Below, one piece after another: positions 1 through 64,000 of a DNA stretch of 64,000 bases. Source of the stretch: an uncultured delta proteobacterium (GTDB taxonomy: Bacteria; Desulfobacterota; Binatia; Binatales; Binataceae); assembly GCA_963848285.1 (NCBI GenBank), contig CAWKCZ010000003.1:964009-1028008 (forward strand), written 5' to 3'. The stretch's first letter is position 1. Every line of letters starts with the position of its first letter. A program made the translations under genes and the position numbers. The notes beneath the pieces were generated by a model that saw nothing but the letters and a program-made list of their open reading frames with translations, was not told where the DNA came from and made no database searches.

Positions 1-346
1 CATCCGATCGTGACGCTTGGTGAGCACCTGATAGGTGTGCCAGTTCGCACTCTCCATCACGCGACCGACCTTCGCGATGTAGTCGGTGGGGATGTCCTCG
101 TGAAAGAGGTCGCTCATCGAATTGACGAAGATGCGTTTCGGCGTCCGCCACTTCAGAGGCATTTCCAGTTTCTCGGGCACCAGCCGGAGGTCGAATCCCT
201 GCTCGAACGGATGCCGCGGAACTCCGCGAAATCTCTCGGCGAACGTTTCGGCGTAACAATGCTTACAGCCCGGCGATGATCTTGGTGCATCCGCGCACCG
301 GATTCCACGTCGCATCGGTCCATTCGATGGGACTGCGGTCACTCAT
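1..346 (-). pseudogene. DUF5131 / phage Gp37-Gp68 family protein. Only the N-terminal part is present (it runs off the window), and the frame is broken once.
   Basis: The minus-strand ATG at 346-344 gives MSDRSPIEWTDATWNPVRGCTKI followed by a stop. Shifting one base near 275-281 restores SPGCKHCYAETFAERFRGVPRHPFEQGFDLRLVPEKLEMPLKWRTPKRIFVNSMSDLFHEDIP, the conserved Cys-rich N-terminus of this family. Confidence 0.7.
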
Positions 347-429
347 TCAGGAACGCTCTCGCCAGGCGAATATAAAGCGAATTTAGGCGATACGTCAACA
401 AACTCGGTTGGAGATGTTTCTTTGTTTCC

Positions 430-654
430 TTATGCTCTTGCAAAATCGTCGCGATCGATTTGTGCGGCGCGCAGGAGCTTTGCGAGCAAACCCACGCTGA
501 TATCGCCCTGATGAGGATTTGGAATGGTAACCGGCGGCATTCCTTCTTTCACCATATAGGCGTGCTTTCCGCCAGCGAAAGGACCGTCGTATCCGAGTCG
601 CCGCAACTTGCGGACAAACTCGCTCCGAGAACAAGGCAGAAGTCTCTCGGCCAT
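430..654 (-). CDS. hicA: HicA-family mRNA-interferase toxin (YcfA-like)
   Basis: The 74-aa ORF reads SRSEFVRKLRRLGYDGPFAGGKHAYMVKEG...TIPNPHQGDISVGLLAKLLRAAQI, a typical HicA length and motif. It lies 11 nt downstream of a HicB-like gene. Confidence 0.8.
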   Translation of the reverse strand: MAERLLPCSRSEFVRKLRRLGYDGPFAGGKHAYMVKEGMPPVTIPNPHQGDISVGLLAKLLRAAQIDRDDFARA

Positions 655-665
655 CGAGTCGGTTG

Positions 666-923
666 TTATTCGATTTTTTGCGGAGGGTCTAAGTAGCTCA
701 GTCCGTCGATGCGAGGAGGTTCATTTTTTCCAACAAAGGTATTGACGTGCAGCCAGCCGTCGAGCGCCTCGAACAGGTCCTGCTTGGCGTCTTCCACGCT
801 GCGCCCCGTAGCCCACAATCCCGGTAACTGTGGGATATAGGCAAACCATTCGCCCTCGCCTTCCATCGGCTCGATCACCGCATGCCGCATCGCAGCGCGC
901 ATATATTCCAGCACGGTTGCCAT
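666..923 (-). CDS. hicB: HicB-family antitoxin (UPF0150-type N-terminal domain)
   Basis: The 85-aa ORF contains GEWFAYIPQLPGLWATGRSVEDAKQDLFEALDGWL, characteristic of HicB/UPF0150. It is paired with hicA. Confidence 0.7.
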   Translation of the reverse strand: MATVLEYMRAAMRHAVIEPMEGEGEWFAYIPQLPGLWATGRSVEDAKQDLFEALDGWLHVNTFVGKNEPPRIDGLSYLDPPQKIE

Positions 924-960
924 GTTTCGAGCGTAGCACGCGCCAAGGGGTGATGTAAGT

Positions 961-1470
961 TTACTCGCGGGTGGGGCGGGGGCGCAGGCCTACCATGCGC
1001 ATCGAGCCGGACATCAGCGAGAAGATGATCGGAGCGATTAGCGCCGAGATCAGTGCCTGCAACGCCAGCGTCGGGAGCGCATCGTTGATGGCGATGCCGG
1101 CGGCACGACCGGAAGTTAGCGCGATGGCGCCAAATCCCGCGAGCATCACCGCGAAGAACACTACCGTCGCTCCCACCAATGCGTTGGTAACCAGCAGTCG
1201 TCTGGAAATTTCGTAGGTCACCAGGAACACGGCGGTCATCAGAAACGCATTCATGCCAAGCGTGGTGCCGGACATCGCATCGGTGGCGTACCCAATCGCA
1301 AAGGCAAGCAACGCAGGGATCGCGCCATGATGCCGCAGGCCCAGGTCGACCGTCAGGATGATGATGAGGTTCGGGATCAGCGCGCGAAACGGGAGCCACA
1401 GGGGAATCGCGGTCTGAATCAGCAGCGCGATGTAAGTTGCGATCGCAAACAGGATAACCATTCGAATCAA
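961..1470 (-). CDS. mreD: rod shape-determining protein MreD
   Basis: A 169-aa polytopic membrane ORF immediately downstream of mreC in the canonical mreB-mreC-mreD order. Confidence 0.8.
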   Translation of the reverse strand: MIRMVILFAIATYIALLIQTAIPLWLPFRALIPNLIIILTVDLGLRHHGAIPALLAFAIGYATDAMSGTTLGMNAFLMTAVFLVTYEISRRLLVTNALVGATVVFFAVMLAGFGAIALTSGRAAGIAINDALPTLALQALISALIAPIIFSLMSGSMRMVGLRPRPTRE

Positions 1471-1474
1471 CTCG

Positions 1475-9141: not shown

Positions 9142-10348
9142 CTAATGATGATGTCCGTGCTGATGGTGATGGGCGGGCGCTTCGAGGCTGGCGAGCGCGG
9201 CGGCGCGGGTTTCCTCCATCACGGTTTTGAGCGGAACGTTATGAGTAGTCGGCGATTTTGCGGCAGTCCTCATATTCCGGGGTCGCGGTCATCGCACCGT
9301 CACCCTCGGAAAATTTCACCTTGATGCGGCCCCATCGCGTCTCGACCTCGCGGATTTCACGACGCAATTTGAGGCGCGCCACCGGATGAAAGCGCACTCC
9401 GATAGTCGAGGTTTCGGCGAACAGGATTTTCGCGAGCGCATCGCGGCGCGCAGCCTCGGCCAGCACCGTAATCGTGATCGCAGGCCTGCCCTTCTTCATG
9501 ATGATGGGAGTCAGGGTCACGTCACGCGCGCCCGCGCTGAACAGCCGCTCCATCACATGATCATAGATTTGTGGATTGAGGTCGTCGATGTTGGCGGAAA
9601 TTTCCAGCAACTCGTCGGTCTCGAGCGCGCCACGTTCGCGGCCGATCATGATGCGCAGCACGTTGGGACGATCCTCGTACTCGCGGGTCCCCGCGCCGTA
9701 GCCGATTTTCTCGATTTCGAAATTGAGCGGGAGCGGCGCCGAACGTCCGAGCGCGCGCAGCACCGCGGCTCCCGTCGGCGTGACCATCTCGGCGGGCCCA
9801 TCGCCCATCCGCACCGTGAATCCCGCGAGGAGTTCCGCCGTGGCGGGCGCCGGCACCGGAATGATCCCATGCTGCGAGCGCGCAAAGCCCGATCCCATCG
9901 GCAGGGGCGATACCAGCAATTCGCCGACGCCTAATTCCTCGAGCGCCCACGCGGTCCCAACGATATCCATGATCGAATCGACCGCACCGACCTCGTGGAA
10001 GTGAACGTGCTCGGGCGTGGTGTGATGCACTTTGGCTTCGGCCTCGGCGAGCACTTCGAAAATCGCACGCGCACGACGCTTCGCGGCCATGCCGATCGAC
10101 GATGCCTCGATCATCTCGACGATTTGCCCGAGATGACGCTGCGGTTGCGCCTCCATCACCTCGACGTCGAACTTGATCGCGGCGATTCCGCTCACCGTCT
10201 TGCGCCCACACGAAAGCCGCGATCCCTTCAACGGAAGTGTCGCGAGGGCACCTTCGAGTTGCTTGAAGTCGACGCCGGCGTCGAGTAGCGCGCCTACCAG
10301 CATGTCGCCGGAGAGGCCCGAGAAGGCGTCGAGATAAGCGGTCTTCAT
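9142..10348 (-). pseudogene. larC: nickel-pincer cofactor biosynthesis protein LarC (DUF111), with the frame broken near the 3' end
   Basis: The N-terminus MKTAYLDAFSGLSGDMLVGALLDAG and the motifs HFHEVGAVDSIMDIVG and MKKGRPA are typical of LarC. The track ORF stops at 9239 (CRKIADYS). Shifting frame near 9245 continues as HNVPLKTVMEETRAAALASLEAPAHHHQHGHHH and stops at 9144-9142. Confidence 0.8.
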
Positions 10349-10420
10349 GGGGTTTATCTTTACATACTAGCGGGCTCGAAGTACGATCCGATACTTGGTT
10401 TTCTGCCGCAGCGGCAGCCG

Positions 10421-10828: not shown

Positions 10829-11701
10829 ATGAAAGTTCGCAAGGCTGTAGTTGTGGCCGCCGGGCTCGGCACGCGGATGCTGCCGGCCTCCAAGGTGCTT
10901 TCCAAGGAGATTCTGCCGGTGGTCGATACGCCAGCGATCCAGCTTATCGTCGAGGAGGCGATCGCCTCGGGCATCGAGGAAGTCATCGTTGTCATCACGC
11001 CCGGCCGCACGATGGTGCTGGATCACTTCAAGCCCGCCCTCGAACTCGAGCGCAGCTCGAGGCGAAGGGCAAGACCGACGTTCTCGAGATGATCCGCAAG
11101 ACCAACGCGCCGGTGAAGCTGACCGCGGCATACCAGGAAAAGCCGCTGGGCCTCGGCCATGCCGTACTGCAGGGAGCCAAGGCGGTTGGCGATGAGCCAT
11201 TCGCCGTGTTCCTGCCCGACGACATCATCGATGCGGACAAGCCCTGTTTGCGCCAGTTGCTCGACGTCGCCGAAAAGAAAGATTCGCCGGTGGTAGCACT
11301 TCTGCGAGTTGCGCAAAGCGAGCTGTCGAAGTACGGCATCGTCGCGGTCAAGCCGGCGGGCGACGCGTGTGTATGAGCTTACCGGCATGGTCGAAAAGCC
11401 TCCGCCAGGCAAAGCGCCGAGTGAGTTCGCCATCATGGGACGTTACGTGCTGACGCCGGATATCTTCGACCTCATTCGGCAGGGCAAGCCGGGCGCCGGT
11501 GGGGAAATTCAGCTTACCGATGCGTTGCTTGGGCTGGTCAAGCAGCGCAAGATCTATGGCTACGAGTTCGAGGGCACGCGGTACGACCTCGGCGACCGGG
11601 TCGGCTACATCACGGCGCAAATCGGCTACGGCTTGAAACGCCCGGAACTCGCTGATAGGTTGCGGGCCTACCTCGACACGGTGACCTCGCGCAAGAATTA
11701 G
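10829..11701 (+). pseudogene. galU: UTP--glucose-1-phosphate uridylyltransferase GalU, with the frame broken twice
   Basis: Frame 1 reads MKVRKAVVVAAGLGTRMLPASKVLSKEILPVVDTPAIQLIVEEA...FKPALELE. Frame 2, from ~11045, reads LEAKGKTDVLEMIR...LGLGHAVLQGAKAVGDEPFAVFLPDD...KYGIVAVKPAGD. Frame 3, from ~11365, reads RVYELTGMVEKPPPGKAPSEFAIMGRYVLTPDIF...EIQLTDAL...YGYEFEGTRYDLGDRVGY. Together these form a colinear GalU. Confidence 0.85.
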
Positions 11702-15191: not shown

Positions 15192-16658
15192 CTAATTGGG
15201 CTGCCACCCAGGCGGCATCTGTTTCTTCGTAGCGACGACGACCTTCCATTGAGGGGGATTTTGCTTTGCGTCCTCCACCAGCTTGTAAGTGCCGATGATC
15301 ACGCCTCCGCTATAACAGCAACTGGGGTCGCTGCGATTGTAGATCGGATCGAAGAACACCCAGGTTCCGCCCTCAAAATAGGCGTCTCCATATTCCCCGC
15401 TCGCCGGAACCGGGACCAATCGATCGTTTTCGATCTTGTAGAAATCGTTACCCTGATAATGAAACCCATCAGACGAGGGGATTTCGAGAAAGAATCCTCT
15501 TTGCTCAGTGACGCCGACATCGCTGATGCGCTGGTAGTTCGCCTTGAAGATGGATGGATGCCCATAGTGGATTCCCGTTCCGTCCTCCTCCGGGTCGGAG
15601 TACATCACCTGCTCTTGTCGATATTGATCCGGCGCGACCTTCTTCCAGATCACCAATCGATCTGAGCGGTCCTGTCCCGCATGGACCGTGATGATCAATG
15701 GTGTATTGAGCCCGGCGCCATTTGCGAGCGGCACCTTGTTGACCAACTGCGATGGATATTCGTGATCGGAATCGGCCGGAATCATCGCGTCCATCTGCTT
15801 CGCGCTGTAAAGACGATTATCCGGACCGGGAAGCTTGTCGCCTGACGGAGCTTCATTTTTATCCGCGGCTTCGGCAGCCTTTTGCGCTTCACCCCCAGCC
15901 TGGAGGAGGGCAGTTATCGCGCTGCTGCGGACGTCGGAGTTCGGGTCTTTGAGCGCGGCCGTAAGAGGCGCAATCGCGTCGGGCGGGATCGGTTTCATGC
16001 CGGCAAGCGCGTAGGCTGCGTTTTGCCGGACATACAGGTTGGAACTTTTGAGCGCGCGAGCCAGCGCCGGCACCGCGGCAGCCCCGATCTCGGAGAGCGG
16101 GCCAACCGAATCGGACGGAGGTCGTTCGCCCAGATTCGCGATCAGCATCTGCGTCAGATAAGGACAACGCGGCTTGATCCCCAATATCGTGCGAAGCAAA
16201 AAGCTTCGGTTGTCCGGGTCGTGTGCGAGGGCCTTCTCCAGCGCTGAGCACGCCCCGACACCTTCTAGCTGAGCCAAGGCTTGTCCAGCCGGCGCCCGAA
16301 TGTAGGATTGCCGATCTTTGGCGAGCGCATGTTCCAGAGCGGGAATCGCCGGCTTGGCCGCAGGTCCCATTTTTTGAAGAACCTCGATCGCGGAGCCGGC
16401 AAACGAGCCATCTCCCTCCATGACCAGCCGGATGAAAATCGGAAGCACCCGGAGATCAGTTGGATCGGCGTAGTAAAGCGCGAAAGCCGCATAGCATTGC
16501 GTCTCGGGATCGGAATCCTTGAGCGCTTGCGTCAACTCGGGCAACACGGGATCCAGATCCTTGGGTTCGATTCTGTTCTTGGTCCCACGTTGCTCTTTCG
16601 CAGAAATCTGAGACCAACCCGCCATGGTGTCGATTGTCCGCAGCGCGCCTTTTCTCAT
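15192..16658 (-). CDS. HEAT-repeat protein (C-terminal portion), with a ~200-aa C-terminal domain of unknown function
   Basis: Repeated HEAT/PBS-type units are present (LTQALKDSDPETQCYAAFAL, AIPALEHALAKDRQSYIRAPAGQAL, VPALARALKSSNLYVRQNAAYAL, LTAALKDPNSDVRSSAITAL). It overlaps the upstream ORF by ATGA (16655-16658). Confidence 0.65.
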   Translation of the reverse strand: MRKGALRTIDTMAGWSQISAKEQRGTKNRIEPKDLDPVLPELTQALKDSDPETQCYAAFALYYADPTDLRVLPIFIRLVMEGDGSFAGSAIEVLQKMGPAAKPAIPALEHALAKDRQSYIRAPAGQALAQLEGVGACSALEKALAHDPDNRSFLLRTILGIKPRCPYLTQMLIANLGERPPSDSVGPLSEIGAAAVPALARALKSSNLYVRQNAAYALAGMKPIPPDAIAPLTAALKDPNSDVRSSAITALLQAGGEAQKAAEAADKNEAPSGDKLPGPDNRLYSAKQMDAMIPADSDHEYPSQLVNKVPLANGAGLNTPLIITVHAGQDRSDRLVIWKKVAPDQYRQEQVMYSDPEEDGTGIHYGHPSIFKANYQRISDVGVTEQRGFFLEIPSSDGFHYQGNDFYKIENDRLVPVPASGEYGDAYFEGGTWVFFDPIYNRSDPSCCYSGGVIIGTYKLVEDAKQNPPQWKVVVATKKQMPPGWQPN

Positions 16659-17224
16659 CCCGGGTCACTGCCACGTAGTTGGTCGAAGAGAAGCGGAAGC
16701 ACGGGTTTACCCACGGACGCCAATCTGGTCATCGCGTCGGGGTATCCATGCTTCTTGTCAATATCGATCAAAATCGGCCATACCTTGGGGGTCTTGGGAG
16801 CGAGGCATCCCAGCAGATTGACTCCGATCTGCCGAAGGAAACCGCCGGTCTGGACCCAGCGCTGCACGGTTGGAATCGCGGCGGTCCCGGCATTACAGAT
16901 GGCTGCCTCGGCGTAGTCCCGGACCTGGTTGTCACCGCCCGTCGCCTCCACAATCGTGATCATTGTTTGCAGGGTCTCGGATGAAACCGGTTCGATTTTG
17001 CTGAGGGCCTTGGCTGCGTCGCGCTGTTTCTGGATATCCGGATCATGCAACTGCTGCAGGAGGTGCGCGGTGTCCTTGGTAGCTTCGGCGGCATCCTTGG
17101 TACCTTGGGCGGCGTGCGCGATGCCCAAGTAGACTGCCCCAGTAAGAACGACGACGCTGACGAGCAGCGCGATGCGAATGGCGGTTCGAAATACTCTGGC
17201 CATGGCAGTCACAGAGTTTACCAC
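16655..17224 (-). CDS. HEAT-repeat protein (N-terminal portion with a membrane anchor)
   Basis: The ORF has an N-terminal TM (IRIALLVSVVVLTGAVYLGIAHA), followed by LLQQLHDPDIQKQRDAAKAL and further HEAT-like helices. It ends ...LLFDQLRGSDPG directly abutting MRKGALRTI of the next ORF. Confidence 0.65.
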   Translation of the reverse strand: MVNSVTAMARVFRTAIRIALLVSVVVLTGAVYLGIAHAAQGTKDAAEATKDTAHLLQQLHDPDIQKQRDAAKALSKIEPVSSETLQTMITIVEATGGDNQVRDYAEAAICNAGTAAIPTVQRWVQTGGFLRQIGVNLLGCLAPKTPKVWPILIDIDKKHGYPDAMTRLASVGKPVLPLLFDQLRGSDPG

Positions 17225-17352
17225 ATCTATCAGGATGACTGGTCGGAATTTGAAAAAGAAATCCCCTCCGGTCGCCGGCTCACGCCGATCCCGTGGTCCA
17301 CATCCAGTCTCATTTACGACATTGCGGAGAATCGGCTAAGAGGCTGCGCGTA

Positions 17353-17742
17353 CTATCGGCGGCGGCGTTCGCCACCCACAGTCTGCAGAGCATCATTCAG
17401 CATATCGCGCACTTTGCCATGAGCGCCGGCACCGGATGCGAGTCGAACCTCGCCCTCCTCGCGCACAATCAACAGCAGCTGATCATTTTCCAGGTCTTCC
17501 GAGGCGACGCGGACCAAGGCCCGTGTGGTCATGTCGAGGGTTTGCGCTTCCAATTCGCTAAGACGGCCCAGGCATTGCGCCAAGATAACTGGCGCATCGA
17601 GTCCGCCGCCCTCGGATGCGCCCAGCCTGATCCGACCGCCATCGCGCACCAGCAGCAGGATGTCTCCGTCAAACTCCTCGGCAGCGGTCGCAACCACCGC
17701 CTGCAGAGTCGTGCGATCAAAGGGTTTTGATTCCTCGTCCAT
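17353..17742 (-). CDS. hypothetical protein (129 aa) with an internal duplication
   Basis: I started it at the internal ATG (17742) of the 239-aa track ORF. Two similar halves are visible (DGDILLLVRDGGRIRLGASEGG and NDQLLLIVREEGEVRLASGAGA). No family is recognised. Confidence 0.35.
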   Translation of the reverse strand: MDEESKPFDRTTLQAVVATAAEEFDGDILLLVRDGGRIRLGASEGGGLDAPVILAQCLGRLSELEAQTLDMTTRALVRVASEDLENDQLLLIVREEGEVRLASGAGAHGKVRDMLNDALQTVGGERRRR

Positions 17743-17880
17743 CAGTGCCTTGACCCAGAGTATAACAGCCACGCGGATTCGACTATGGAGACTGACATTC
17801 TTGACACAGAAACCGGTTCGCAACAGACTGCCTATCCGCCTATCGATTGATCGGCTTCCAAAACAGTTCGGAGAATAGAT

Positions 17881-19506: not shown

Positions 19507-19586
19507 TTGCACGATTGCTCGCCTTGCTTCGCGCGGCTGGCCTCTCGGATTCGCGCTCACTCCAGGTTGATGGGGATTTTTTCTGC

Positions 19587-45392: not shown

Positions 45393-45528
45393 ATGACACC
45401 CGAAAACGATCGCTCACGGCGCGAGTGACAAGGTGCACGTCATGCGCGGAATTGTTCGATTGACATCGGCACGACCGCTTAGCGGCGCCGTGCGAGCGTG
45501 TCAGGTTACGAACGAATGTTTCGGGCGC

Positions 45529-46047: not shown

Positions 46048-47243
46048 ATGGACTTCGAAATGAGCCCGAGACCAAGGAGTACTATCCGAAGGTCGACGCC
46101 TTCATGCAGGAACACGTCCTGCCCAACGAAAACAAAATCGATCACGAAGTCGAGACTCTGGGTGAAAAGTTCAACGAATCGCCGACTATGAACGACATCC
46201 GTAAGAAGGCCAAGGCGCACGGCCTCTGGAACCTTTTCCTGCCCGATCCCAAGCATGGCCCGGGGCTGAACAACTTCGAGTATGCCCCATTATGCGAGCT
46301 GATGGGCCGCAGTTTTTACGGCGCGCGCGCCTTCAACTGCATGGCGCCCGATACCGGCAACATGGAAATCCTCGCCGAGTTCGGCACCGACGAGCAGAAG
46401 AAGAAGTGGCTGCAGAAATGCCTCGATGGCGAAATCCGCACCTGCTTCTCGATGACCGAGCCCGATACTCCAGGCTCCGATCCGACCCAGCTCAAGACCC
46501 GCGCGGTTCGCGACGGCGACAATTACGTCATCAACGGGCGCAAATGGTTCACCTCAAATGCGATCGGCGCGGCCTTCGCCATCGCGATGGTGGTTACCGA
46601 TCCCGAGGCCGAACCGCATCGGCGCGCGAGCCAGATCATCGTGCCGCTCGATACTCCCGGAATGAAAGTCGTACGGCCGGTTCCCGTAATGGGTCATACC
46701 GGTGGCGGTGGGCATTGCGAGGTGCTCTACACCGATTGCAAAGTTCCGATCACGGCGCTGCTGGGTGAGGAAGGCGGCGGCTTCGCGATTTCGCAGGCGC
46801 GCCTCGGTCCCGGCCGCATCCATCATTGTATGCGCACCATCGGCATCGCCGAGCGCGCCATCGAGCTGATGTGCAAACGCGCTAACACGCGGTGGACGCA
46901 TGGCAGCTACCTCGCGGACAAGGCCAACATCCAGGAATGGATCGCCGACTCGCGCATCGAGGTCGACTCGACCCGCCTGATGGTGATGAACGCGGCGTGG
47001 AAGATGGACCATGAGGGCAAGCGTAACGCGCGCAACGAAATCGCCGAGATCAAGGTGATGGCGGCCAACATGGTGATGCGCGTCCTCGATCGCGCGATCC
47101 AGCTTTATGGCGCGGCGGGCGTGAGCGACGACTATCCGTTGGCGCGTTTCTGGCGCGACAGCCGCGCGCTACGCATCGCGGACGGCCCCGACGAAGTGCA
47201 TCGGATGACGATCGCGCGTCGCGAACTGAGGAAGTGGAAGTGA
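46048..47243 (+). pseudogene. acyl-CoA dehydrogenase (ACAD10/11- or FadE2-like subgroup), with the frame broken once near the 5' end
   Basis: The ATG at 46048 gives MDFEMSP. Shifting near 46068 gives TKEYYPKVDAFMQEHVLPNENKIDHEV... The body contains CFSMTEPDTPGSDPTQL, INGRKWFTSNA and RIADGPDEVHRMTIARREL. Confidence 0.85.
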
Positions 47244-50604: not shown

Positions 50605-51747
50605 CTAGTACCGATGCATCCGCGCGAGGCGGTCGGCGTGGAAATTCGCGTCGCCGAACAGCTCGTTGCAGACCCGCACGCGCTTCATGAAGAAGCCCAT
50701 GTCGAACTCGTCGGTCATCCCGATGCCGCCGTGCATCTGCACGCCTTCCTGCACCGCGCGCGTCGCGCTGGTGCCGGCGCGCGCCTTCGCGACCGAGACG
50801 ATGTGCGCCGGCCTGGTCGAAGATCTCATCGAGGGTTTGCAGCGCCTTCAGCACCGGCGAGCGGGTTAGCTCCAGCTCGCAATAGAGATCCGCGGCGCGA
50901 TGCTGCAGGGCCTGGAACTCGCCGATGAGTTTGCCGAACTGCTTGCGCTCGCGCAGATACGTCACCGTGCGATCGAAGGCCTCCTGGCTCGCGCCGACCA
51001 GCTCCGCTGCGAGCGCGGCGCGGCCGACATTCAACGTGCCCTCCAGCGCATTCCACCCTGCGTCAAGCTGGCCGAGGACCGCGTCGGCGCCGACGCTGAC
51101 GTTGTCGAAGCTCAGGCGCGCGGCATTGTGCGTATCGACCATCGAGCGTGCGCTCGGCCTTGATGCCCTTGGATTTCGCATCGACGAGGAACAGCGTGAT
51201 GCCCTTGGTATCGCCCGCCGCGCCCGAGGTTCGCGCGGCCACGATGATGAGATCCGCCACGTGCCCATCGAGGACGAAGGTCTTCGTGCCCTTGAGGGTG
51301 AAGCCGTTGCCGGAGCGCGTCGCGGTCAGCGCGATTTTTTCGGGGCGATGCTTCGAGGATTCATCAACCGCCAGGGTCGCGATCAAATCTCCGCTCGCGA
51401 TCTTCGGCAGATAGCGCGCCTTCTGTTTGTCGTTGCCGGCGCGCGCGATGGCGCTCGCGGCGAGCACGGCGGTCGAGAGAAATGGCGACGGCGTCAGGGT
51501 GCGGCCGAGTTCCTCCATCACCACGCCGACCTCGACGTGGCCGAGGCCGAGTCCGCCGTGGTCCGTGCGGAATCAGGATGCCGGCCCATCCGAGGTCGAC
51601 GAATTCCTTCCACAGCGGGCGCGAAAAACCTGTCGCATCCTTGCTATCGCGGAGTTGGCGCAGATGCGCGATGGGCGCGTTCTTGCTCAAAAAGCCGCGC
51701 GCATGATCGCGCAGCATGTTCTGTTCGTCGTTGAGTGTTAATGGCAT
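50605..51747 (-). pseudogene. acyl-CoA dehydrogenase, with the frame broken about 3 times
   Basis: The pieces are MPLTLNDEQNMLRDHARGFLSKNAPIAHLRQLRD...GWAGILIP; VVMEELGRTLTPSPFLSTAVLAA...GFTLKGTKTFVLDGHVADLIIVAART; LNVGRAALAAELVGASQEAFDRTVTYLRERKQFGKLIGEFQALQHRAADLY; AKARAGTSATRAVQEGVQMHGGIGMTDEFDMGFFMKR. Confidence 0.8.
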
Positions 51748-51756
51748 GGGTTTTTA

Positions 51757-52944
51757 CTACGCGCCCGGGAAGCCGAGAATTCGTTTCGCGATGATGTTGA
51801 GCTGGACCTCGCTGGTCCCGCCTTCGATGGAGTTGGCTTTCGAACGCAGCCACGCGCGCGCGTGAAGCCGTCGCGCGAGCGCTCGCCTTCCCATTCCAGC
51901 GCATCGGAGCCGCCGGCCGACATCGCGAGCTCCATCCGACGCTTGTTGAGCTCGGTGCCGTAGTATTTCAGCAGCGAGGAAATCGCCGGATGCGCCTGGC
52001 CGGTCTTCGCCATGTCGCCCACGCGCTCCATCGTAAGCTTGAACGCGAGCGCGTCGATTTCGTAGGTACGCGATCTGCCCGCGCAGCACGGTATCCGCGA
52101 GGACGCCGTTTTCGATGCCGACCGATTCGGCGGCGATCTGCCCGAGCGAGCGGCTCTCGGAGGTGCGGCCCATCCCGCCGATCATGTCGCGCTCATGGGT
52201 GAGCAGGTACTTGGCGATGTCCCAGCCCTTGTTCATGGTGCCGACGAGGTTTTCGCGCGGTACCGTGACGTCATCGAAAAAGGTCTGGCAGAACGGCGAC
52301 GCGCCCGAGATCAGCGTGATCGGCTTGGTCGAGACGCCCGCGCTTTCCATGTCGAACAGGACGAAGCTGATGCCCTCGTGCTTGGGCGCGTTGGGTTCGG
52401 TGCGCACCAGGCAGAAAATCCAGTCGGCCTTGTCCGCGTATGAGGTCCAGATCTTCGAGCCATTGACGATGAAGTGATCGCCCTTGCAGCTCGGCGCGGG
52501 TCTGCAGCGAGGCGAGGTCGGAGCCGGCGCCGGGTTCGGAATAGCCCTGGCACCAGCGGATTTCGCCGCGCGCGATTTTCGGCAGATGCTCCTTCTTCTG
52601 CGCCTCGTTGCCGTATTTCGAGCAGCGCGGGGCCGAGCATCCAGATGCCGAAGCTGTCGAGCGGCGAGCGGCATCCGAGCGCGGCCATTTCCTGGCGCAG
52701 GATTTTCGCCTCGTCGCGCGAGAGCCCGCCGCCGCCGTATTCGCGCGGCCATTCGGGCACCGTCCAGCCCTTGGCCGCCATGCGCTCCATCCATTGGCGT
52801 TGCGCTTCGGACTTGAATTTCGACGCGCCTGCCGCCCCAGCAGGTGTCGTCTTCGCCGAGGCGCGGGGCGTGCGCATTTCCGGGCGGGCAATTGGCCTCC
52901 AGCCACGCGCGGGTTTCTTTGCGAAAGGTTTCGAGATCGCTCAT
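51757..52944 (-). pseudogene. acyl-CoA dehydrogenase, with the frame broken at least 5 times
   Basis: The pieces are [20 protein letters not shown]; [35 protein letters not shown]; [43 protein letters not shown]; [29 protein letters not shown]...; LTMERVGDMAKTGQAHPAISSLLKYYGTELNKRRMELAMS; ANSIEGGTSEVQLNIIAKRILGFPGA. It ends 9 nt before the next ACAD start. Confidence 0.75.
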
Positions 52945-53024
52945 CGACGCGCTCCTCGTAACAATGTAGGCAACCATTATGGCGGTGGCGCGCCAACTTG
53001 GGTAGCGGAAGTTGCGGAGTGAAG

Positions 53025-53795: not shown

Positions 53796-55058
53796 CTAGA
53801 AACGACCTCCGAAGTCACCGGAACTCCAGCGTCCGCGTGCGCTATCCGCAAAGGAACCGCCGCCGAAGCTGCCGCCGCCAAACATGCCTCCCCCGCCGGA
53901 GTTGCGAAACATGCCACCGCCGCCACCACCGAAGAGTCCACCGTCGCCACCGCCCCATCTTCCCTGGTTGGAACCGAGGTTGCTTCCCGCATCGGGATGA
54001 TCCTGATGGAAGCTATCGGCGTTTTGCTGCCAGTCGGGATGCTTTTGCGCAAAGCTTTCGTCGGTCGAACCCGGAGCACTCTCGGGATTTTGTTTGTCGG
54101 CGTCGGGATTGTTCTGCCGGTACTGGTCGACGTCCTGCTGCCCTTTCGAGTACGCGGTCGGATGGTTCTGTTCGAAATCAGGATGGTTTTTGCTGAAGTT
54201 ATCCCAGTCCTGGTTCCAGTTCTGGTTCTTCGCGGTGTTGGCCCAGTTGTTGTAGTTGGGCGTCGGATTGTCGTGATTCCAGTTCTCGTTGTTCCAGTTG
54301 TGGTAGTAGTAATTGTTAGTGTTCGAGACGTAGGTCTGATGGTTGTAGGTGACGCTGCTGCTTCCCCAGTCGCATCCCCACGCACTACTCATCATCGAGC
54401 CCATCATCATGCCGGTGGTGAAGCTCATCATGCTGGTCATCATCATCTGGCTGCTGCTGTAGCCCGGATATACCGGCATCGGAGTGCCATAGACGACGGT
54501 CGGGTTGTACTGCGGAACGTAGATCACCTGCGGGCTAGCCGGCACGATGACGATAGTCTGTCCACTCTGCGTCACCGTCTGCTGGGGCGTGGTCTTGAGG
54601 TTGCCGGCGGCCTGCGCCTTCTTGCGTAGTACCTGGATTTCCTTCAGCACCGCCTGCGGTTCGTTGTAGTAGGCGTCGCCGAGCGCCGAGGCCCACGAGA
54701 GGTTGTCGTTCATGTTGGCGAGCACGGGAGGAAACTGAGTCAGCGACTTCACGCTCGATCCCACGGCTGCTTGTCGACGGCCTCGGCGAGCGGCTTTCCG
54801 GTCAGGTCCTTGTGTTCCTGCATGAAGCGCTGGGCCTCGACGATATCGACCGGATGAGTCGAGGCAGCGAGAATTTGCGCGACCAGGGTGTCGGGGTACA
54901 GCGCAATCGGTGAGACCAGTTGTTCGAGCTCTTTGGGTGGGAGCGTTGCCGGTTGAGGCGTTCGCGACCCGCGAGCCCAGCGAGGTCGCGATTATCAGCA
55001 GCAAGGCCGACAGCCATCTCAGTGCCGACGCATTTTTGATCGAGGTCTTATGCTCCAT
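53796..55058 (-). pseudogene. DUF3300-family protein with a pair of compensating frame breaks. The ORF stays open, but the conserved N-terminal motif is out of frame.
   Basis: In the open frame, residues after the signal read as Arg-rich nonsense (PTQRARTTGLTDCAVPRHPGRANSR...). Between ~54940 and ~54755 an alternative frame reads PPKELEQLVSPIALYPDTLVAQILAASTHPVDIVEAQRFMQEHKDLTGKPLAEAVDKQPWD, the DUF3300 signature. After that the open frame resumes with SVKSLTQFPPVLANMNDNLSWASALGDAYY. The C-terminus is an N/W/H/G-rich low-complexity tail. Confidence 0.8.
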
Positions 55059-55293: not shown

Positions 55294-56054
55294 CTACTTT
55301 CCCTTCCAATTCGGGGGGCGCTTTTCCGCGAACGCGAGCGCGCCTTCGCGCGCGTCATCGGTGCCCACCAGCCACTTGATAGCCTTCGCGCTCGAGCTTC
55401 AGTCCTTCGACGAGCGGACGATCCAGCCCTTCGAGCGCAACCCGCTTGATGCGCTGGACTGCCAGCGGCGCGCTCTTGCAAATCTCCGTCGCGATGCTTT
55501 CGCATTTGTTCATGAGCTGGCTCATCGGCACCACGTGATCGACGAGTCCCAGGCGCAAAGCCTCCGCGGCATCGATGCGGTTGCCGGTGTAAAGCATCTC
55601 CAATGCGCGTCCCAACGGAATCAGGCGCGGCAGCCGCTGCGTGCCGCCTCCGCCGGGAAGCCATCCGAGGCGCACCTCGCCGAGGCCGAATTGCGCATGC
55701 TCGGCCGCGACCCGGATATCGCACGCGAGCGCCTGTTCGAGGCCGCCGCCATTCGCATGCCCATTGATCGCCGCGATGATCGGCTTGTGCAGTTCCAGCA
55801 TGATGGGGAACGGGGATTTCGCCGGGTCGGCGCCGCGCGCTTCGACGTAGTTGGATTTCACATCGCTGCCGGCGCTGAAGGCGCGCTCGCCCGACACCGG
55901 TCAGAATCGCGACGCGGAGGTCGGCGTCGTCGCGAAATTCTTTCCAGATGTCGGCGAGGCGGCCGTAAGCCTCGAAGTCGCAGGCATTCAGGCGCTCCGG
56001 GCGATTGATGGTGACATAGGCGACGTGGTTGCGTTTTTCGAAGAGTACTTTCAT
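55294..56054 (-). pseudogene. enoyl-CoA hydratase/isomerase (crotonase) family protein, with the frame broken twice
   Basis: The pieces are MKVLFEKRNHVAYVTINRPERLNACD...LRVAILTGV; GERAFSAGSDVK...KPIIAAINGHANGGGLEQALACDIRVAAEHAQFGLGEVRLGWLPGGGGTQRLPRL; WLVGTDDAREGALAFAEKRPPNWKGK-stop (TAG 55296-55294). Confidence 0.8.
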
Positions 56055-58834: not shown

Positions 58835-59750
58835 TTGCACGAAATTAATTACGAAGTCCCAACCTCCGTCGCCCAGGCGGTGACGATGCTAAAACGCCAT
58901 GGCGAAAAGGCGCGCCCGTTTGTGGGAGGCACCGATCTTCTCATCCAACTGCGCGCCGGCGTGCCTTCCGGGCACAGTGAAGAATTTCGCCCCACTGCCG
59001 CGGTGCGACGCCCCGAGTTCGTCGTCGACCTCAAGCACATCAAGGAGCTGCGCCAGATTAAGTTCGATGCCAAGAAAGGGCTGCGGCTGGGCGCGGCCGT
59101 TCCCTGCATCGAGGTCTACGAGAGCGAGGTGATGCGCAAGAATTACCCCGGCCTGACCGAGGCCGCGCATCTCATCGGCTCGCTGCAGATCCAGAACCGC
59201 GCGTCGGTGGGTGGCAATCTATGCAATGGTTCGCCCGCGGCCGATACGACGCCCGCGCTGATCGCGCTTGGCGCCAAAGCACGCATCGCGGGCGGGAAAG
59301 CAATCCGCGAAGTCCCGGTTGAGGACTTCATCCTGTCGCCCGGCCGCACCGTCCTGAAGCCCGGCGAAATCGTGGTGGAACTTGCGATTCCCGCGCCGAA
59401 GCCGCATTCGTCCGATGCGTATCTGCGCTTCATCCCGCGCAACGAAATGGATATCGCGGTGGTCGGAGTCGGCACCTCTCTTACCTTGGAGGGCGATACG
59501 GTCAAGGCGGCGCGCATCGCGCTCGGCGCAGTCGGCCCGACGCCGATTTTCGCCAAGGCGGCGAGCGATTCGCTGATCGGCAAGACGCTCGGACAGCGCC
59601 ACGATCGAGGCCGCGGCACAACTCGCGATGGAAGCCGCGACCCCGATCGACGACATGCGCGGGACCGCCGAATTTCGCAAGCACGTAACCGGCGTTCTGA
59701 CCCGGCGCACCATTCAAATCGCCGCCGAGCGCGCGCGCAACAAACAGTAG
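58835..59750 (+). pseudogene. molybdenum hydroxylase medium (FAD-binding, CoxM/XdhB-like) subunit, with the frame broken once
   Basis: A TTG start follows a GGAGGG Shine-Dalgarno sequence. The ORF contains VGGTDLLIQLRAG, IQNRASVGGNLCNGSPAADTTPALIALGA and LRFIPRNEMDIAVVGV. Shifting near 59595 gives SATIEAAAQLAMEAATPIDDMRGTAEFRKHVTGVLTRR, with the stop at 59748-59750. Confidence 0.8.
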
Positions 59751-59764
59751 GGAATCGATACACA

Positions 59765-60284
<520 letters not shown>

Positions 60285-60368
60285 ACCACGCACGCTGCGC
60301 GCGATGGCGTCACCGAATACGAACCTCGCAAGACAAGTTAAAGGCTTCCCAAACAGGGAGATTTGAGC

Positions 60369-62664
60369 ATGGCAGAATCAAAGAACAATACAAGGTCATC
60401 GGAACCCGCCCGATTCGTCACGATGGCATCGACAAGGTTACCGGCCGCGCCAAGTACGGCGCCGACTATGCCTTCCCGGGCATGCTGTTCGGCAAGGTGC
60501 TGCGCAGCCCGCATGCTCACGCGATCATCAAGTCGATCAACGTCGAGAAGGCGCTCGCGATGCCGGGCGTCAAGGCGATCGTGACCTCGGCGGATCTTCC
60601 CGAGGCCGAGGACAAGGTCGAGCAGGTCGGCGAAGCGGCGATGAACCCGCGCTACCTCTCGATGAACATCCTCGCGCATCAGAAGGCGCTCTACGATGGG
60701 CATGCGATCGCGGCGGTCGCCGCGACCAGCCCGCATATCGCGGAAGAGGCGCTGCGCCTCATCGAGGTGGACTACGAAGTTCTGCCGCCGGTGATGACGG
60801 TGGACGACGCGATGAAGAAGAACGCGCCGGTCCTGCTGCCGAACCTGCGCAACAAGGAAGAGGGCGACAACCCGACCAACGTCGCGAGCCATCTGCAGTT
60901 CAAGCGCGGCGATGTCGCAGCCGGCTTCGCAGCGGCCGATTTCGTCGTCGAGCGCGAGTTCCACACCGCGATGGTCCATCAGGGATACATCGAGCCGCAC
61001 AACGCGGTCGGCATGTACAACTCCGACGGCCAGGCAACGATCTATTGCTCGACCCAGGGCGCCTTCGATGTGCGCTCGATGTGCGCGCAGGTGCTGGGAG
61101 TGTCGGTCGGCAAGATCAAGGTCGTGCCGGCGGAAATCGGCGGCGGCTTCGGCGGCAAGACCACCATCTACCTCGAACCGCTCTCGCTGATGCTGTCGAA
61201 GAAGACCGGCCATCCGGTGAAGCTGGTGATGACTCGCGGCGAAGTGCTGCGCGCCAGCGGCCCGACCTCGGGCTCCAGGATCAAAATCAAGATGGGATGC
61301 ACCCGCGACGGCAAGATCACCGGCGCGGAAGTCTGGCTGGCATACGAGGCGGGCGCGTTTCCGGGCTCGCCGGTCGGCGCCGGCGCGATGACGCTGCTGG
61401 CTCCCTACAACATCGACAATTTCCAGATCGACGGTTACGACGTGGTCGTCAATCGGCCCAAGACCGCGGCCTATCGGGCGCCGGGCGCGACCAACGCGGC
61501 CTTGGCGTCGGAAACCGTGATCGACGAGCTGGCCGAGAAATGCGGAATGGATCCGATCGACTTCCGCATCGCCAACGCGGCCAAGGAAGGAACTCCTCAG
61601 ATTGTCGGACCTCCCTACAAACGGATCGGCTTCATCGAAACCATCGAGGCAATCAAGAACAGCCCTCATTATAAGAGCGAGCTGAAGGGCCCCAATCGCG
61701 GGCGCGGAATGGCGGCCGGGTTCTGGTTCAACGCCGGGCATGCAGTCGTCGGCGACCGTGAACATCCAGACCGACGGCACCGCCAGCGTCGTCACCGGCT
61801 CGACCGATATCGGCGGCTCGCGCGCCGCGATGGCGATGATCACCGCCGAAGTCCTCGGCCTCGGATGTCACCGACGTGCGCCCGGTCGGTGGCGGATACC
61901 GATTCGATCGGCCATACCGACGTGACCGGCGGCAGCCGCGTGACCTTCGCCACCGGGATGGCGGTTTACAACGCCGCCCAGGATGCGCTGCGCAGTTGAA
62001 GGAGCGCGCCGCGAAGACCTGGGAGAAGAAGCCCGAAGACGTGAAGTTCGAGGACGGCAAGTTCTCAGCGCCGAGGGCGAAGGCATCAAGCCGATGAACG
62101 TGAAGCAGCTCGCCAGCCGGCTCGCGCGCACCGGCGGCCCCATCACCGGACGCGCGCAGGTCAGCACCGGCGGCATCGGCGTCGGTCCCGCATTCGCGGC
62201 CACGCTGGTCGACGTCGAAGTCGATCCCGATACCGGCAAGGTGCAGGTCCTGCGCTGCACGATCGCGCAGGACGCCGGCAAGGCGATTCATCCCAGCTAC
62301 GTCGAAGGCCAGATGCAGGGCGGCACCTCGCAGGGCCTCGGATGGGCGCTCAACGAGGAATATTTCTACGATGCGAAAGGCACGCTGCGTAACACCGGAT
62401 TGCTCGACTATCGGATGCCGACCTGCCTCGACCTGCCGATGATCGAGACGGCGATCGTCGAGATTCCCGAACCCGATTCATCCGCTGGGAGTGCGCGGCG
62501 TCGGCGAGGTTTCGATCGTGCCGCCTCCCGCGGCGGTCGCCAACGCGATCTATCGCGCGACCGGAGTGCGGATGACGGAACTGCCGATGTCACCTCCGAG
62601 GGTGCTCAAGGCGATTCTCGAAAACCGCCGCACGCATGACCTGCAGGCTGCGGCGGCTGACTGA
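60369..62664 (+). pseudogene. molybdenum hydroxylase large (molybdopterin-binding, xanthine dehydrogenase family) subunit, with the frame broken about 7 times
   Basis: A GGGAGA Shine-Dalgarno sequence precedes the ATG at 60369 (MAES). The pieces are KEQYKVIGTRPIRHDGIDKVTGRAKYGADY...; QGYIEPHNAV; IGGGFGGK; TAAYRAPGATNAALASE; QSSATVNIQTDGTASVVTGSTDIGGS; VADTDSIGHTDVTGGSRVTF; QLKERAAKTWEKKPEDV; FAATLVDVEVDPDTGKVQVLR...AIHPSYVEGQMQGG; PIHPLGVRGVGEVSIVPPPAAVANAIY. Breaks lie near 60378, 61738, 61862, 61890, 61995, 62070 and 62475. Confidence 0.85.
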
Positions 62665-62681
62665 TTGAGGTCTAGTGGGGA

Positions 62682-62735
62682 GGGGCCGATCACGACGCGA
62701 CGCATGTCGTCGCAGAGATCGGCCCCTTCATTTTT
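62682..62735 (+). terminator. Rho-independent terminator-like hairpin between the large subunit and the MoaD-like gene
   Basis: GGGGCCGATC (62682-62691) pairs with GATCGGCCCC (62717-62726), enclosing a second small GC hairpin. TTCATTTTT follows and runs straight into the ATG at 62736. Confidence 0.7.
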
Positions 62736-63003
62736 ATGGCGACTGCGATAATTCCCTCTCTCATGCGTAAACTCACCGGCGGGCTCGATCGCGTTACGGT
62801 ATCGGGCAAAAACCTGCGCGAAGCGATCGCGGACCTAGACCGTCAGTTCCCCGGGATTGCCGGTCAGTTACTTGACAACGGCGATATCAAGGCCTCGATC
62901 GCGGTGTCAATCGATGGCGAGGTGGGGACCAACGGCGTGCTGGAGACGATTGAGCGAGAACAGCGAGATTCATTTCATGCCGCAGATCGCGGGCGGGCTT
63001 TGA
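62736..63003 (+). pseudogene. MoaD/ThiS-family ubiquitin-like sulfur-carrier protein, with the frame broken once near the 3' end
   Basis: The first piece is MATAIIPSLMRKLTGGLDRVTVSGKNLREAIADLDRQFPGIAGQLL...IAVSIDGEV. Shifting near 62950 gives SENSEIHFMPQIAGGL-stop, restoring the C-terminal Gly-Gly of this family. Confidence 0.6.
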
Positions 63004-63318
63004 AGGATCGGTCGGCGAGTGACTTAAGGCGAGCTTAAACGGCTGCACATGACAGGAGCTAGCGTGGCATCATGGAGCAAGCAATTAGCGTATTAGAGCG
63101 TCAATCCGTTGCGGATTGCCAATTCTCTCCGCCATTGCAAGCAGTCTAAAGTTAAGTACAATACGGAACGCTGGCCGGGGTTTGCCCCCCTTTTCCCGGT
63201 TGGCTTTGGGCCGGGCGGAGCAATCTGTCCGGCCCGAGTTTTCTTGCCGGCGATCGGCCAATCCCGCGGCCGTGATTGCGGGTCGAGGATTTTGTCAGGA
63301 GGACGTTACGGCGCGCGG

Positions 63319-63718
63319 TTACGACATGAAGACTTCGCGCACGTGATTGACGTCGTTGTACTCGCGAACCTGTCCGAGCTTGTCGCCATCGAAAGCGAAA
63401 TAGAAGTGGTATCGATTGGCGTACTTCTTTCCGTTCCCCGCGACGGTGTCTGACTCGGCCTGGATCGCCACGTGCGGCCCTTCCGCGATCACGGTGTGAA
63501 TTTTCAGATTCAGGCCCTTGGGGAACATTGCCGCCATCGTCGCGGTGATGCCTTTGATAAACACATCCTTGCCGCGCATCGGCGTGATGCCCGGCAGCCG
63601 CCCCATCATCTCGAACTCAAAGTCGTCCGCGAGCGATGTCGCCGAGAAACTTCGCGTCCGGCTTGTCGAGCGTCATCAGAAAGGTTCGCGACTTTTCTTT
63701 CTGCTGTTCAAGATTCAT
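63319..63718 (-). pseudogene. SnoaL/NTF2-like fold protein, with the frame broken once
   Basis: The ATG at 63718 gives MNLEQQKEKSRTFLMTLDKPDAKFLGDI. Shifting near 63640 gives ADDFEFEMMGRLPGITPMRGKDVFIKGI...HVAIQAESDTVAGNGKKYANRYHFYFAFDGDKLGQVREY. Confidence 0.6.
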
Positions 63719-63746
63719 CGGAGACTCCTTCGCGGGAATCGCAGTC

Positions 63747-64000
63747 TCAGCGCCGGATGACGAGCACCGCGCAGGACGCGTGGCGCAGGACTTTTTCGGT
63801 GGTACCGCCGATCAGCACGCCGTCGCCGCCGGTGCGGCCGTGGGTCGACATCACGATCAGATCGATGCCGTGTTCGCGCGCGTACTCGCCGACCTTGATC
63901 GCGGGCGAGCCGACCGCGGTTGCGGTGACCACTTTTCCGAGTTCTCGAGGTGGTCCTTCTTGATGCGCGCGAGCTCTTCCTCGGCCTGCTCGATCATCGA
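63747..64000 (-). pseudogene. universal stress protein (UspA family). Only the C-terminal part is present (the gene continues beyond the window), and the frame is broken once.
   Basis: The C-terminus reads GSPAIKVGEYAREHGIDLIVMSTHGRTGGDGVLIGGTTEKVLRHASCAVLVIRR. Upstream of ~63935 the helix IEQAEEELARIKKDHLENSEK is in another frame. Confidence 0.7.

Follow-up and report, generated by a model that had tools for sequence, protein, structure and literature searches.

Clustered frame breaks in a 64-kb Binataceae metagenomic locus are very probably long-read consensus errors

The window, by which we mean the whole 64,000-nucleotide (nt) stretch of DNA analysed here, encodes a LarC protein, GalU, a response regulator, several dehydrogenases, a thiolase, enoyl-CoA hydratases, an efflux operon with an RND transporter and molybdo-flavoprotein (CoxM/S/L-like) subunits, many of which cannot be read in a single frame (Table 1). 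Its exact proteins all fall on one NCBI/ENA contig of 1,047,064 bp, from a soil bacterium of the Binataceae. In total, 56 indels with lengths that are not a multiple of three break the frames of 22 genes, and at least 10 further small indels lie in spacers. A sequence-only reading of this DNA had counted about 60 breaks in about 27 genes; the number of breaks stands, and the number of genes is lower.

Three lines of evidence placed the breaks: homologues aligned in a frameshift-aware manner, relatives aligned at the DNA level and the continuity of Pfam domains. The frameshift-aware protein-to-DNA aligner was purpose-written, and its queries were open reading frames (ORFs) of relatives, including the Illumina metagenome-assembled genomes (MAGs) and contigs L003, L004, L021, L090 and L093. 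Identical positions were recovered with several independent references, and DNA multiple alignments located window-specific 1-nt indels inside otherwise conserved flanks. The fragments proved colinear with single homologues, the point on which the sequence-only reading had made the reality of its breaks depend, and the breaks are confirmed as features of the deposited sequence. After correction, the short-chain dehydrogenase matches positions 1–234 of the 236 of adh_short_C2 in a single stretch; larC is intact in the Illumina contig L093 (96% amino acid identity). Insertions and deletions both occur, as had been claimed, with two examples now read differently: the extra C proposed near 34895 is an inserted G at 34902, after CCC, and the base lost from galU, at 11052, is an A and not a C.

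Per 10 kb, a homology-free codon Viterbi model switched frame 7.7 times in the window and 1.15 times in Illumina-derived Binataceae loci totalling 358 kb. One of its calls, at 14404 in the MepA gene, is false, as the original frame reads a complete M74 C terminus; homology-free calls are therefore unreliable one by one. The gene-end Viterbi calls at 9171, 12513, 38954, 53631, 57395, 60375 and 63930 and the event at 277 were treated as candidates only and left out of the count. Between 12.5 and 13.8 kb there is no confident gene model, and Pfam gives only a weak Gly_rich_2 match.

Table 1. Genes, spacers and break-free blocks of the window, with the events placed in each (sizes as given)
Feature	Coordinates	Strand	Events	Remarks
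LarC (Ni_insertion)	9142..10348	-	+1 (G to GG) at 9251	ORF 369 aa versus 399–401 aa in relatives
larC–dksA spacer	10349..10420		+1 at 10349 (GGG to GGGG) and 10418 (C to CC)	Window-specific
galU (UTP-glucose-1-P uridylyltransferase)	10829..11701	+	-1 at 11052 (A lost), +1 at 11365	Six relatives concur
HEAT-repeat protein	15195..17402	-	-1 at 16660, +1 at 17231	Relatives 724–739 aa
Largest clean block, 10.1 kb	17240..27350			Intact 1.6-kb, 1.5-kb, 2.9-kb and 2.4-kb ORFs
LuxR/GerE-type response regulator	27271..27932	-	-1 near 27355	In G run; GerE helix continues in other frame
Short-chain dehydrogenase	29349..30313	+	+1 near 29592 and 29740	
Quinohemoprotein PQQ alcohol dehydrogenase	31529..33717	+	-1 near 33389	C-terminal cytochrome c domain in another frame
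Spacer upstream of thiolase	34439, 34471		Two +1 insertions	
Thiolase	34475..35645	+	+1 at 34646 (C) and 34902 (G)	
DUF35 (zf-ChsH2/OB_ChsH2_C)	35634..36108	+	35634, 35648, 35669 (-2), 35759, 35801, 35929 (+2), 35969, 35991	Alignment with L087 and L005
Enoyl-CoA hydratase	36113..36881	+	+1 at 36201, 36552, 36778 and 36848	
Spacer before phosphodiesterase	36890–37004		Small insertions	Basis L087 only
Type I phosphodiesterase (PF01663)	37060..38787	+	37057 (+4), 37314, 37511, 37728 (-1), 38101	Basis L087 only
Glyoxalase-family gene	38751..39471	-	+1 at 39060	At least 10 relatives concur
Clean block: RND transporter (1057 aa) and next efflux-operon gene	39477..44079	-	0 frame breaks	
Third efflux-operon gene	44122..45400	-	+1 at 45179 and 45328	
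At or upstream of start of third efflux-operon gene	45403, 45423			
Acyl-CoA dehydrogenase	46048..47243	+	-1 at 46068	Called as 379 aa from downstream ATG versus 398 aa in relatives
Acyl-CoA dehydrogenase	50605..51750	-	+1 at 50806, 51145 and 51563	
Acyl-CoA dehydrogenase	51757..52977	-	51861 (-1), 52067, 52484, 52620, 52822, 52861 (+2), 52885	
DUF3300 protein	53796..55058	-	Two compensating shifts near 54935 and 54760	Conserved N-terminal motif in another frame
Enoyl-CoA hydratase	55294..56054	-	+1 at 55378 and 55890	
Molybdo-flavoprotein dehydrogenase genes (CoxM/S/L-like)	58835..62664	+	CoxM 59590; CoxS 59905; CoxL 61739, 61863, 61888, 61990 (-1), 62063 (+2), 62469	
ThiS-like and SnoaL-like genes	62763..63718	ThiS-like +; SnoaL-like -	ThiS-like +1 at 62952; SnoaL-like +1 near 63634	More small indels in the intervening spacer

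The breaks show strong clustering: in a list of 59 events, with 277 and 14404 (both since dropped) counted in, the variance-to-mean ratio was 3.3, a value reached in 0 of 20,000 simulations, and the largest gap had P = 0.002. The blocks are 1–6 kb long, around the length of a read, and disregard gene boundaries and function. The insertions in the larC–dksA spacer show that indels strike non-coding DNA too. Most of the division into dirty and clean blocks made by the sequence-only reading is borne out. The block at 33.4–39.1 kb, for which it gave about 25 breaks, has 26 (21 coding and 5 in spacers), that at 50.8–52.9 kb has 10 and that at 59.6–63.9 kb has 10 coding events within 59.6–63.7 kb. 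The DUF35 gene is the densest spot in the window, with figures that need revision from about 6 breaks in 450 bp to 8 events in 360 bp of a gene of around 470 bp.

The longest break-free stretches are 17.2–27.4 kb and 39.1–45.2 kb. The first had been drawn as 16.7–29.6 kb; its core of 17.24–27.35 kb is clean, and the breaks at 17231 (+1) and around 27355 (−1) lie inside the wider limits. Many relatives align without breaks over 39.5–42.65 kb and 42.67–44.06 kb in the RND region. The remaining clean block, proposed at 46.1–50.8 kb, is free of breaks over 46.1–50.6 kb, as judged from relatives spanning 46.07–47.24 kb, from P0079 at 49.46–50.53 kb and from ORF integrity only for the remainder.

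The well-aligned set of events comprises 39 of +1, 5 of −1, 7 of +2 and 1 of −2; all events are 1–2 nt in length except for a single +4 at the start of the phosphodiesterase gene (37057). The excess of insertions (+1:−1 = 39:5, p = 1e-7) does not differ from that in the control contigs described below (Fisher p = 0.23). Natural bacterial pseudogenes show a deletional bias, and the 39:5 excess, together with the presence of indels in spacers and genes alike, makes a poor fit to natural decay. The concentration in homopolymers typical of classic Nanopore consensus errors, which are deletions there, was not found in the window, where 26 of the 39 insertions are not homopolymer extensions. Proven errors in control contig L089 are likewise mostly outside homopolymers (18 of 22), so in these assemblies the error class is not characterized by a concentration in homopolymers. 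No motif common to the 39 insertion sites was found, and no break site is conserved in any aligned relative. Homopolymers of 7 nt or more are missing from the window (the longest is 6 nt), although Illumina relatives average around 5 per 64 kb, which is a weak hint of artefact. Phase-variable contingency loci, which resemble the window in that ±1 changes switch genes off, change by slippage in homopolymer or simple-sequence tracts. The affected genes are instead metabolic and not surface-related, no simple-sequence tracts are involved, and an existing run of at least two identical bases was lengthened in only 4 of the 39 insertions.

Apart from the indels, the genes look well maintained. The corrected coding sequences contain 0 in-frame stop codons in around 9,100 aligned codons, and the catalytic motifs YxxxK (short-chain dehydrogenase) and CC (PQQ alcohol dehydrogenase) are present in the corrected proteins, in agreement with what had been noticed from the sequence. 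Substitutions on the window branch fall mostly at third codon positions, as they do on the branches of relatives. Dirty and clean genes have ratios of 0.43 and 0.33, respectively, for window-branch substitutions at positions 1 and 2 relative to position 3, and window-specific amino acid changes of 3.9% and 3.4%. We found no excess of substitution errors in dirty blocks; given these similar values, the dirty blocks are indel-noisy and not substitution-noisy. Relaxed constraint of the kind that marks pseudogenes, with nonsense codons, elevated nonsynonymous change and indels of varied size that are mostly deletions, was not found in the window.

The closest relatives of the window are Nanopore-only MAGs of Microflora Danica (MFD-LR) with Flye-style contig names. 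The 90%-identity clusters of 20 window proteins, which include JGI/IMG, contain no conspecific genome and only more-distant relatives, and the best relative in a scan of genome contigs reached at most 93% amino acid identity. We therefore turned to natural controls among those relatives: long-read contigs with Flye-style names from ENA assemblies ERZ25039484/491/507, in conspecific triplets. In the first, the long-read contigs L087 and L088 and the JGI Illumina contig L090 show 99.7% agreement and a single gap over 21 kb. L089, a long-read contig of the same species, differs from all three by 22 +1 and 7 −1 indels, and the resulting gene splits are seen in L089 only. Counted per kb along the contig, these indels number 7, 0, 0 and 5, then 0 in eight successive bins, then 1, 0, 1, 3, 12, 3, 1, 1, 9 and 5. 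In the second triplet, L094 and the Illumina contig L097 align with 0 gaps over 22 kb, and L095 differs from both by 6 +1 and 1 −1 indels, five of them within 370 bp. The indels of L089 and L095 occur neither in conspecific long-read contigs nor in Illumina contigs of 99.5% identity or more. Within the dirty blocks of these two contigs there is genuine strain divergence as well, chiefly at third codon positions. The insertion-biased, non-homopolymer, block-wise signature is assembly-specific in these control contigs. The Viterbi model agrees: some MFD-LR loci have 5.6–7.3 frame switches per 10 kb and others 0.4–2, and the density follows the assembly, not the lineage.

Taken with the source of the contig, the spectrum and the selection pattern, these controls support the earlier preference for long-read consensus error over old pseudogenes. 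We conclude that the frame breaks are very probably errors in a long-read metagenome consensus, most likely built from Nanopore reads only, and not mutations in the organism. The most probable origin of the contig is an assembly of the Microflora Danica kind, made with Flye --meta and a single round of Medaka, the platform being our inference. The MFD-LR pipeline used Flye 2.9.2 (--meta --nano-hq) and one Medaka round on Nanopore data without short-read polishing, and its authors report errors in lower-coverage MAGs (PMC12313526). As such a pipeline does no short-read polishing, the patchy polishing that had been offered as a cause is unneeded. Short-read polishing is required for Nanopore bins below 40x (PMC9262707), and only 56.8% of proteins were full length in metaFlye assemblies of soil Nanopore data (PMC13087279).

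The blocks are more likely to stem from local read depth or strain-specific assembly paths. Where many reads agree, the consensus would be essentially perfect; where few reads underlie the assembled path, errors of the raw-read type would persist, mainly as false insertions of one base at ordinary sites outside homopolymers. Reads could be few owing to fluctuation of depth at the scale of read length, or because a block belongs to a single low-abundance strain whereas its neighbours are common to co-occurring strains. Gene callers would then split or shorten the affected genes. The error class is already well known: low-coverage metaFlye and Medaka errors, as seen in IDEEL-type tests, likewise consist of single-base indels that split or truncate ORFs (PMC9262707, PMC12313526, PMC13087279). 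They share with the events described here a dependence on the assembly or sample, absence from Illumina assemblies of the same population (in our controls) and full-length corrected proteins. However, the Nanopore literature stresses deletions in long homopolymers, whereas the window and controls show mostly non-homopolymer insertions in kilobase-sized blocks, which in the controls coincide with strain-divergent segments. We found no published description of a mostly non-homopolymer insertion spectrum such as that of the window, L089 and L095.

A tentative refinement of the artefact, possible but not favoured, is that both alleles of a strain polymorphism were written into a mixed-strain consensus, each producing a +1. 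It would account for the insertion bias, the non-homopolymer sites and the coincidence of indel blocks with strain-divergent blocks in L089 and L095, and the window does read AG at 36848, where two relatives have A or G. Against this, insertions adjacent to third codon positions (23 of 29 in the window and 7 of 12 in L089, versus 67% by chance) are not significantly enriched, a result that low depth alone on a strain-specific path would explain just as well. The blocks of the window may reflect either simple low depth or mixed-strain pileups.

Far less plausible is a real and very recent mass inactivation, caused by a +1-biased mutator or a frameshift mutagen and caught before further decay; the sequence-only reading had kept recent inactivation open, but we give it little credence. 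The breaks do stand in the deposited sequence, colinear with intact homologues, as this would require. But up to 8 indels occur in one 470-bp gene that still shows third-position-dominated substitutions and no stops, bacterial pseudogenes are biased towards deletions and not, as here, towards insertions, events track physical blocks across genes and spacers instead of pathways, and the identical signature is assembly-specific in conspecific contigs. Its specific form, an insertion-biased +1 burst in kilobase blocks of a living Binataceae population that inactivated around 22 genes ahead of any other decay, is slightly less probable again; if true, its closest parallels would be kataegis-like localized hypermutation or damage to DNA that is transiently single-stranded.

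Old pseudogenes, left by relaxed selection or genome reduction, are very improbable. Many of the broken genes encode accessory catabolic enzymes (acyl-CoA dehydrogenases, hydratases and the Cox-like dehydrogenase) that are possibly dispensable, but housekeeping-type genes such as galU are broken too. Mycobacterium leprae and Sodalis glossinidius, examples of reductive evolution, resemble the window in having many frameshifted genes and misleading ORF annotation. Their genomes also carry nonsense codons and larger deletions, with a bias towards deletion and a relaxation of constraint. In the window, nonsense codons are absent, deletions are neither large nor 3n-biased, nonsynonymous change is not elevated, and the events (other than that at 37057) are of 1–2 nt. 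The substitution pattern effectively refutes this reading.

That the shifts are decoded, with programmed ribosomal frameshifting, transcriptional slippage or quadruplet decoding restoring the proteins, would suit the majority of +1 events and the functional appearance of the corrected proteins, but is the least credible proposal of all, given −1, +2, −2 and spacer events, several differently placed shifts per gene, no common slippery or stimulatory motif at the 39 insertion sites, no site conserved in any orthologue and a pattern present in only one of three conspecific assemblies. Known programmed sites (prfB +1, dnaX −1 and IS3-family −1) also need a change of frame, but each is single, conserved among orthologues and linked to a slippery motif, whereas those of the window are multiple per gene, unique and without a motif.

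For biology the breaks are of no consequence: in the organism itself, the genes are almost certainly unbroken. Around 40% of the genes in the window would nevertheless be mis-annotated as truncated, split or pseudogenes, and metabolic reconstructions, protein databases and statistics on pseudogenes or ‘genome decay’ derived from such MAGs would inherit the error. As the mode of error is insertion-biased, non-homopolymeric and block-wise, unlike the textbook homopolymer deletion, homopolymer-aware filters would miss it; the contig needs frameshift-aware gene calling or re-polishing before use. The HEAT-repeat protein gene is called as two ORFs, of 488 and 189 amino acids.

The roughly 60 single-base frame breaks proposed in a sequence-only reading of the window were confirmed almost exactly as described by frameshift-aware alignment, a codon model, DNA alignments and the continuity of Pfam domains. 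Our final count is 56 frame-breaking indels in 22 genes, to which the spacers add at least 10 indels of one or two bases. Using a purpose-written protein-to-DNA aligner that allows shifts of ±1 and ±2 nt, with every long ORF from the relatives' loci as a query, we recovered identical break positions from several independent references, Illumina assemblies included. A homology-free check, a codon-usage Viterbi model with frameshift transitions, reproduced these positions with 49 switches in 64 kb (7.7 per 10 kb); in 358 kb of Illumina Binataceae loci the same model called 1.15 switches per 10 kb, its background from false positives and gene overlaps. A break in MepA called by the codon model only (14404) proved false. 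DNA multiple alignments fix events to a single base within well-conserved flanks: at site 51145, the window reads CGACCATCG[A]GCGTGCGCT and its relatives CGACCATCG-GCGTGCGCT. In genes without close relatives (SDR, GerE, ThiS and SnoaL), Pfam domains are unbroken over the corrected junctions, and the corrected SDR protein covers 1–234 of the 236 positions of adh_short_C2. For the PQQ dehydrogenase and DUF3300, the missing part (the cytochrome c domain and the N terminus, respectively) was found in another frame.

The breaks are clustered far beyond chance. On a list of 59 events that still included 277 and 14404, the variance-to-mean ratio in 2-kb bins was 3.3, a value reached in 0 of 20,000 simulations, and the largest break-free gap was 10.1 kb (P = 0.002). 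Dirty blocks (kilobase-scale stretches dense in frame-breaking indels) lie where they were first placed, with DUF35 as the densest site (8 events in 360 bp), and two clean blocks also stand. A third, proposed at 16.7–29.6 kb, holds for its core, but has breaks inside it at 17231 and around 27355.

Blocks and other features of the window and of contigs from related Binataceae
Locus	Coordinates	Feature	Observation
Window	11709–11784	tRNA-Ala (CGC)	Intact; directly downstream of broken galU; sole RNA gene found in the window
Window	12159–13941	Two long overlapping plus-strand ORFs	284 and 378 aa; weak Gly_rich_2 match only; no confident family and no gene call by the codon model
Window	17.24–27.35 kb	Clean core	No breaks
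Window	33.4–39.1 kb	Dirty block	26 events, including spacers
Window	39.1–44.1 kb (approximate)	Clean block with RND gene	No breaks
Window	39477–42650	RND transporter gene, minus strand	Query of the relatives scan
Window	39477–45400	RND efflux operon	Three genes
Window	46.1–50.6 kb	Clean block	No breaks
Window	50.8–52.9 kb	Dirty block	10 events
Window	56000–58800	Compositionally distinct stretch	GC 54%, strong negative AT skew
Window	56360–58267	635-aa ORF	No Pfam match; codon model calls fragments only
Window	59.6–63.7 kb	Dirty block	10 coding events
L087	6984–9806	Fur and catalase-peroxidase (KatG-like) gene	In place of the RND operon
L094	12421–13101	Isochorismatase gene	TTG to TAG nonsense

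Within well-aligned flanks, single-base insertions outnumber single-base deletions by 39 to 5 (p = 1e-7); the other indels are seven of +2, one of −2 and a few 3n events. The inserted base is G or C in 30 of the 39 single-base insertions, 26 extend no existing run and 4 adjoin a run of at least 2; no positional motif was found around these 39 insertions. No homopolymer in the window exceeds 6 nt. Runs of at least 7 nt average about 5 per 64 kb in Illumina relatives (around 4.4 of length 7 and 0.6 of length 8), and in 350 kb of long-read relatives there is none of at least 8. The absence of runs of at least 7 nt from the window hints weakly at long-read compression.

The broken genes show no decay. 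The corrected coding sequences contain no in-frame stop in approximately 9,100 aligned codons. In three-way codon comparisons, in which the window was set against two relatives and substitutions were assigned to its own branch, changes are still mostly in third positions: the ratio of position 1+2 to position 3 is 0.43 in genes with at least two breaks and 0.33 in unbroken genes (0.30–0.61 on the relatives' branches). Amino-acid changes specific to the window amount to 3.9% and 3.4%, respectively. Thus, genes with up to eight frameshifts give no sign of unconstrained evolution. A real, very recent burst of insertion-biased mutation would require many unlikely coincidences, and we consider it very improbable. 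Natural pseudogenes in bacteria are biased towards deletions, with indels of mixed size and with nonsense codons, whereas the indel spectrum of the window is the opposite, and old pseudogenes are effectively excluded. Programmed frameshifting as the source of the breaks is effectively excluded as well.

We are highly confident that the breaks are consensus errors that arose in long-read metagenome assembly and gather in blocks where effective read support is poor. As controls we used contigs encoding close homologues: two conspecific sets from ENA assemblies ERZ25039484, ERZ25039491 and ERZ25039507, with Flye-style contig names, and JGI Illumina contigs. The first set is syntenic to 34.4–39.5, 46–47.2, 50.6–53, 55.2–56.2 and 58.8–63.6 kb of the window. 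Its contigs L087, L088 and L090 (Illumina) are 99.7% identical, with a single gap over 21 kb. The long-read contig L089 has 22 +1 and 7 −1 indels, 18 of the 22 insertions being outside homopolymers, and within this set it alone has split gene calls for acetate kinase, hydratase, acyl-CoA dehydrogenase and Cox-like genes. By kilobase, its indels number 7, 0, 0, 5, eight kilobases of zero, then 1, 0, 1, 3, 12, 3, 1, 1, 9 and 5. In the second set, the long-read contig L094 and the Illumina contig L097 differ by 0 gaps and 20 mismatches over 22 kb, and the long-read L095 has six +1 and one −1 indels, five of them within 370 bp. An identical signature to that of the window is found, specific to the assembly, in conspecific long-read contigs of the three ENA assemblies, and its insertion-to-deletion ratio does not differ from that of these proven errors (Fisher p = 0.23). 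The nonsense codon in L094, which lies in a cluster of three mismatches within 9 nt with a fourth about 90 nt upstream, is either a real strain variant or a consensus error of the substitution type confined to this spot.

In both L089 (1–21197, against L087, L088 and L090) and L095 (1–9000, against L094 and L097), which come from samples other than that of the window, indels are confined to blocks with mostly third-codon-position substitutions, and hence with real strain divergence; blocks that match the conspecifics identically have zero indels. This overlap suggests that, in these metagenome assemblies, the quality of the consensus follows whether a segment is strain-specific or shared. Dirty blocks may be thinly covered, strain-specific paths, and clean blocks segments common to co-occurring strains that would hence be deeply covered. 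The narrower mechanism, in which the consensus would contain both alleles of a SNP, found no support in a codon-junction test.

We infer a long-read platform for the window's contig, and depth or strain as the cause of its blocks. Assembly of the Microflora Danica long-read catalogue used Flye 2.9.2 (--meta, --nano-hq) followed by a single Medaka round, with no short-read polishing, and the catalogue's authors note Nanopore-associated errors in lower-coverage MAGs (PMC12313526). The same group had stated earlier that short-read polishing is necessary for Nanopore bins under about 40× (PMC9262707), and an independent benchmark of a metaFlye ONT soil assembly reported just 56.8% full-length proteins (PMC13087279). 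Among MAGs of this catalogue related to the window, frame-switch densities reach 5.6 (L005), 7.3 (L010) and 6.1 (L034) per 10 kb, with others at background, a pattern consistent with an effect of coverage and not of lineage. The phenomenon is already known as a class; its only mildly new aspect is an error mode that favours insertions, lies outside homopolymers, comes in blocks and is tied to strain-divergent segments, of relevance to developers of assemblers and polishers rather than to biologists.

A scan with the intact RND transporter, covering one genome per species, places the closest relatives of the window (G+C around 61%) in Candidatus Binataceae. The best matches, at 85–93% amino-acid and 82–89% nucleotide identity, are long-read 'MFD...bin' MAGs with megabase contigs (L001, L002 and L005) and Illumina MAGs (L003 and L004). 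The RND operon lies between glyoxalase and acyl-CoA dehydrogenase genes, as in L001, L003 and L005; the Fur and KatG-like genes at this place in the L087 species indicate a cassette replaced between related Binataceae. The 635-aa ORF resembles a polytopic membrane protein, and the low-GC stretch around it may have a foreign origin or be another heavily broken gene.
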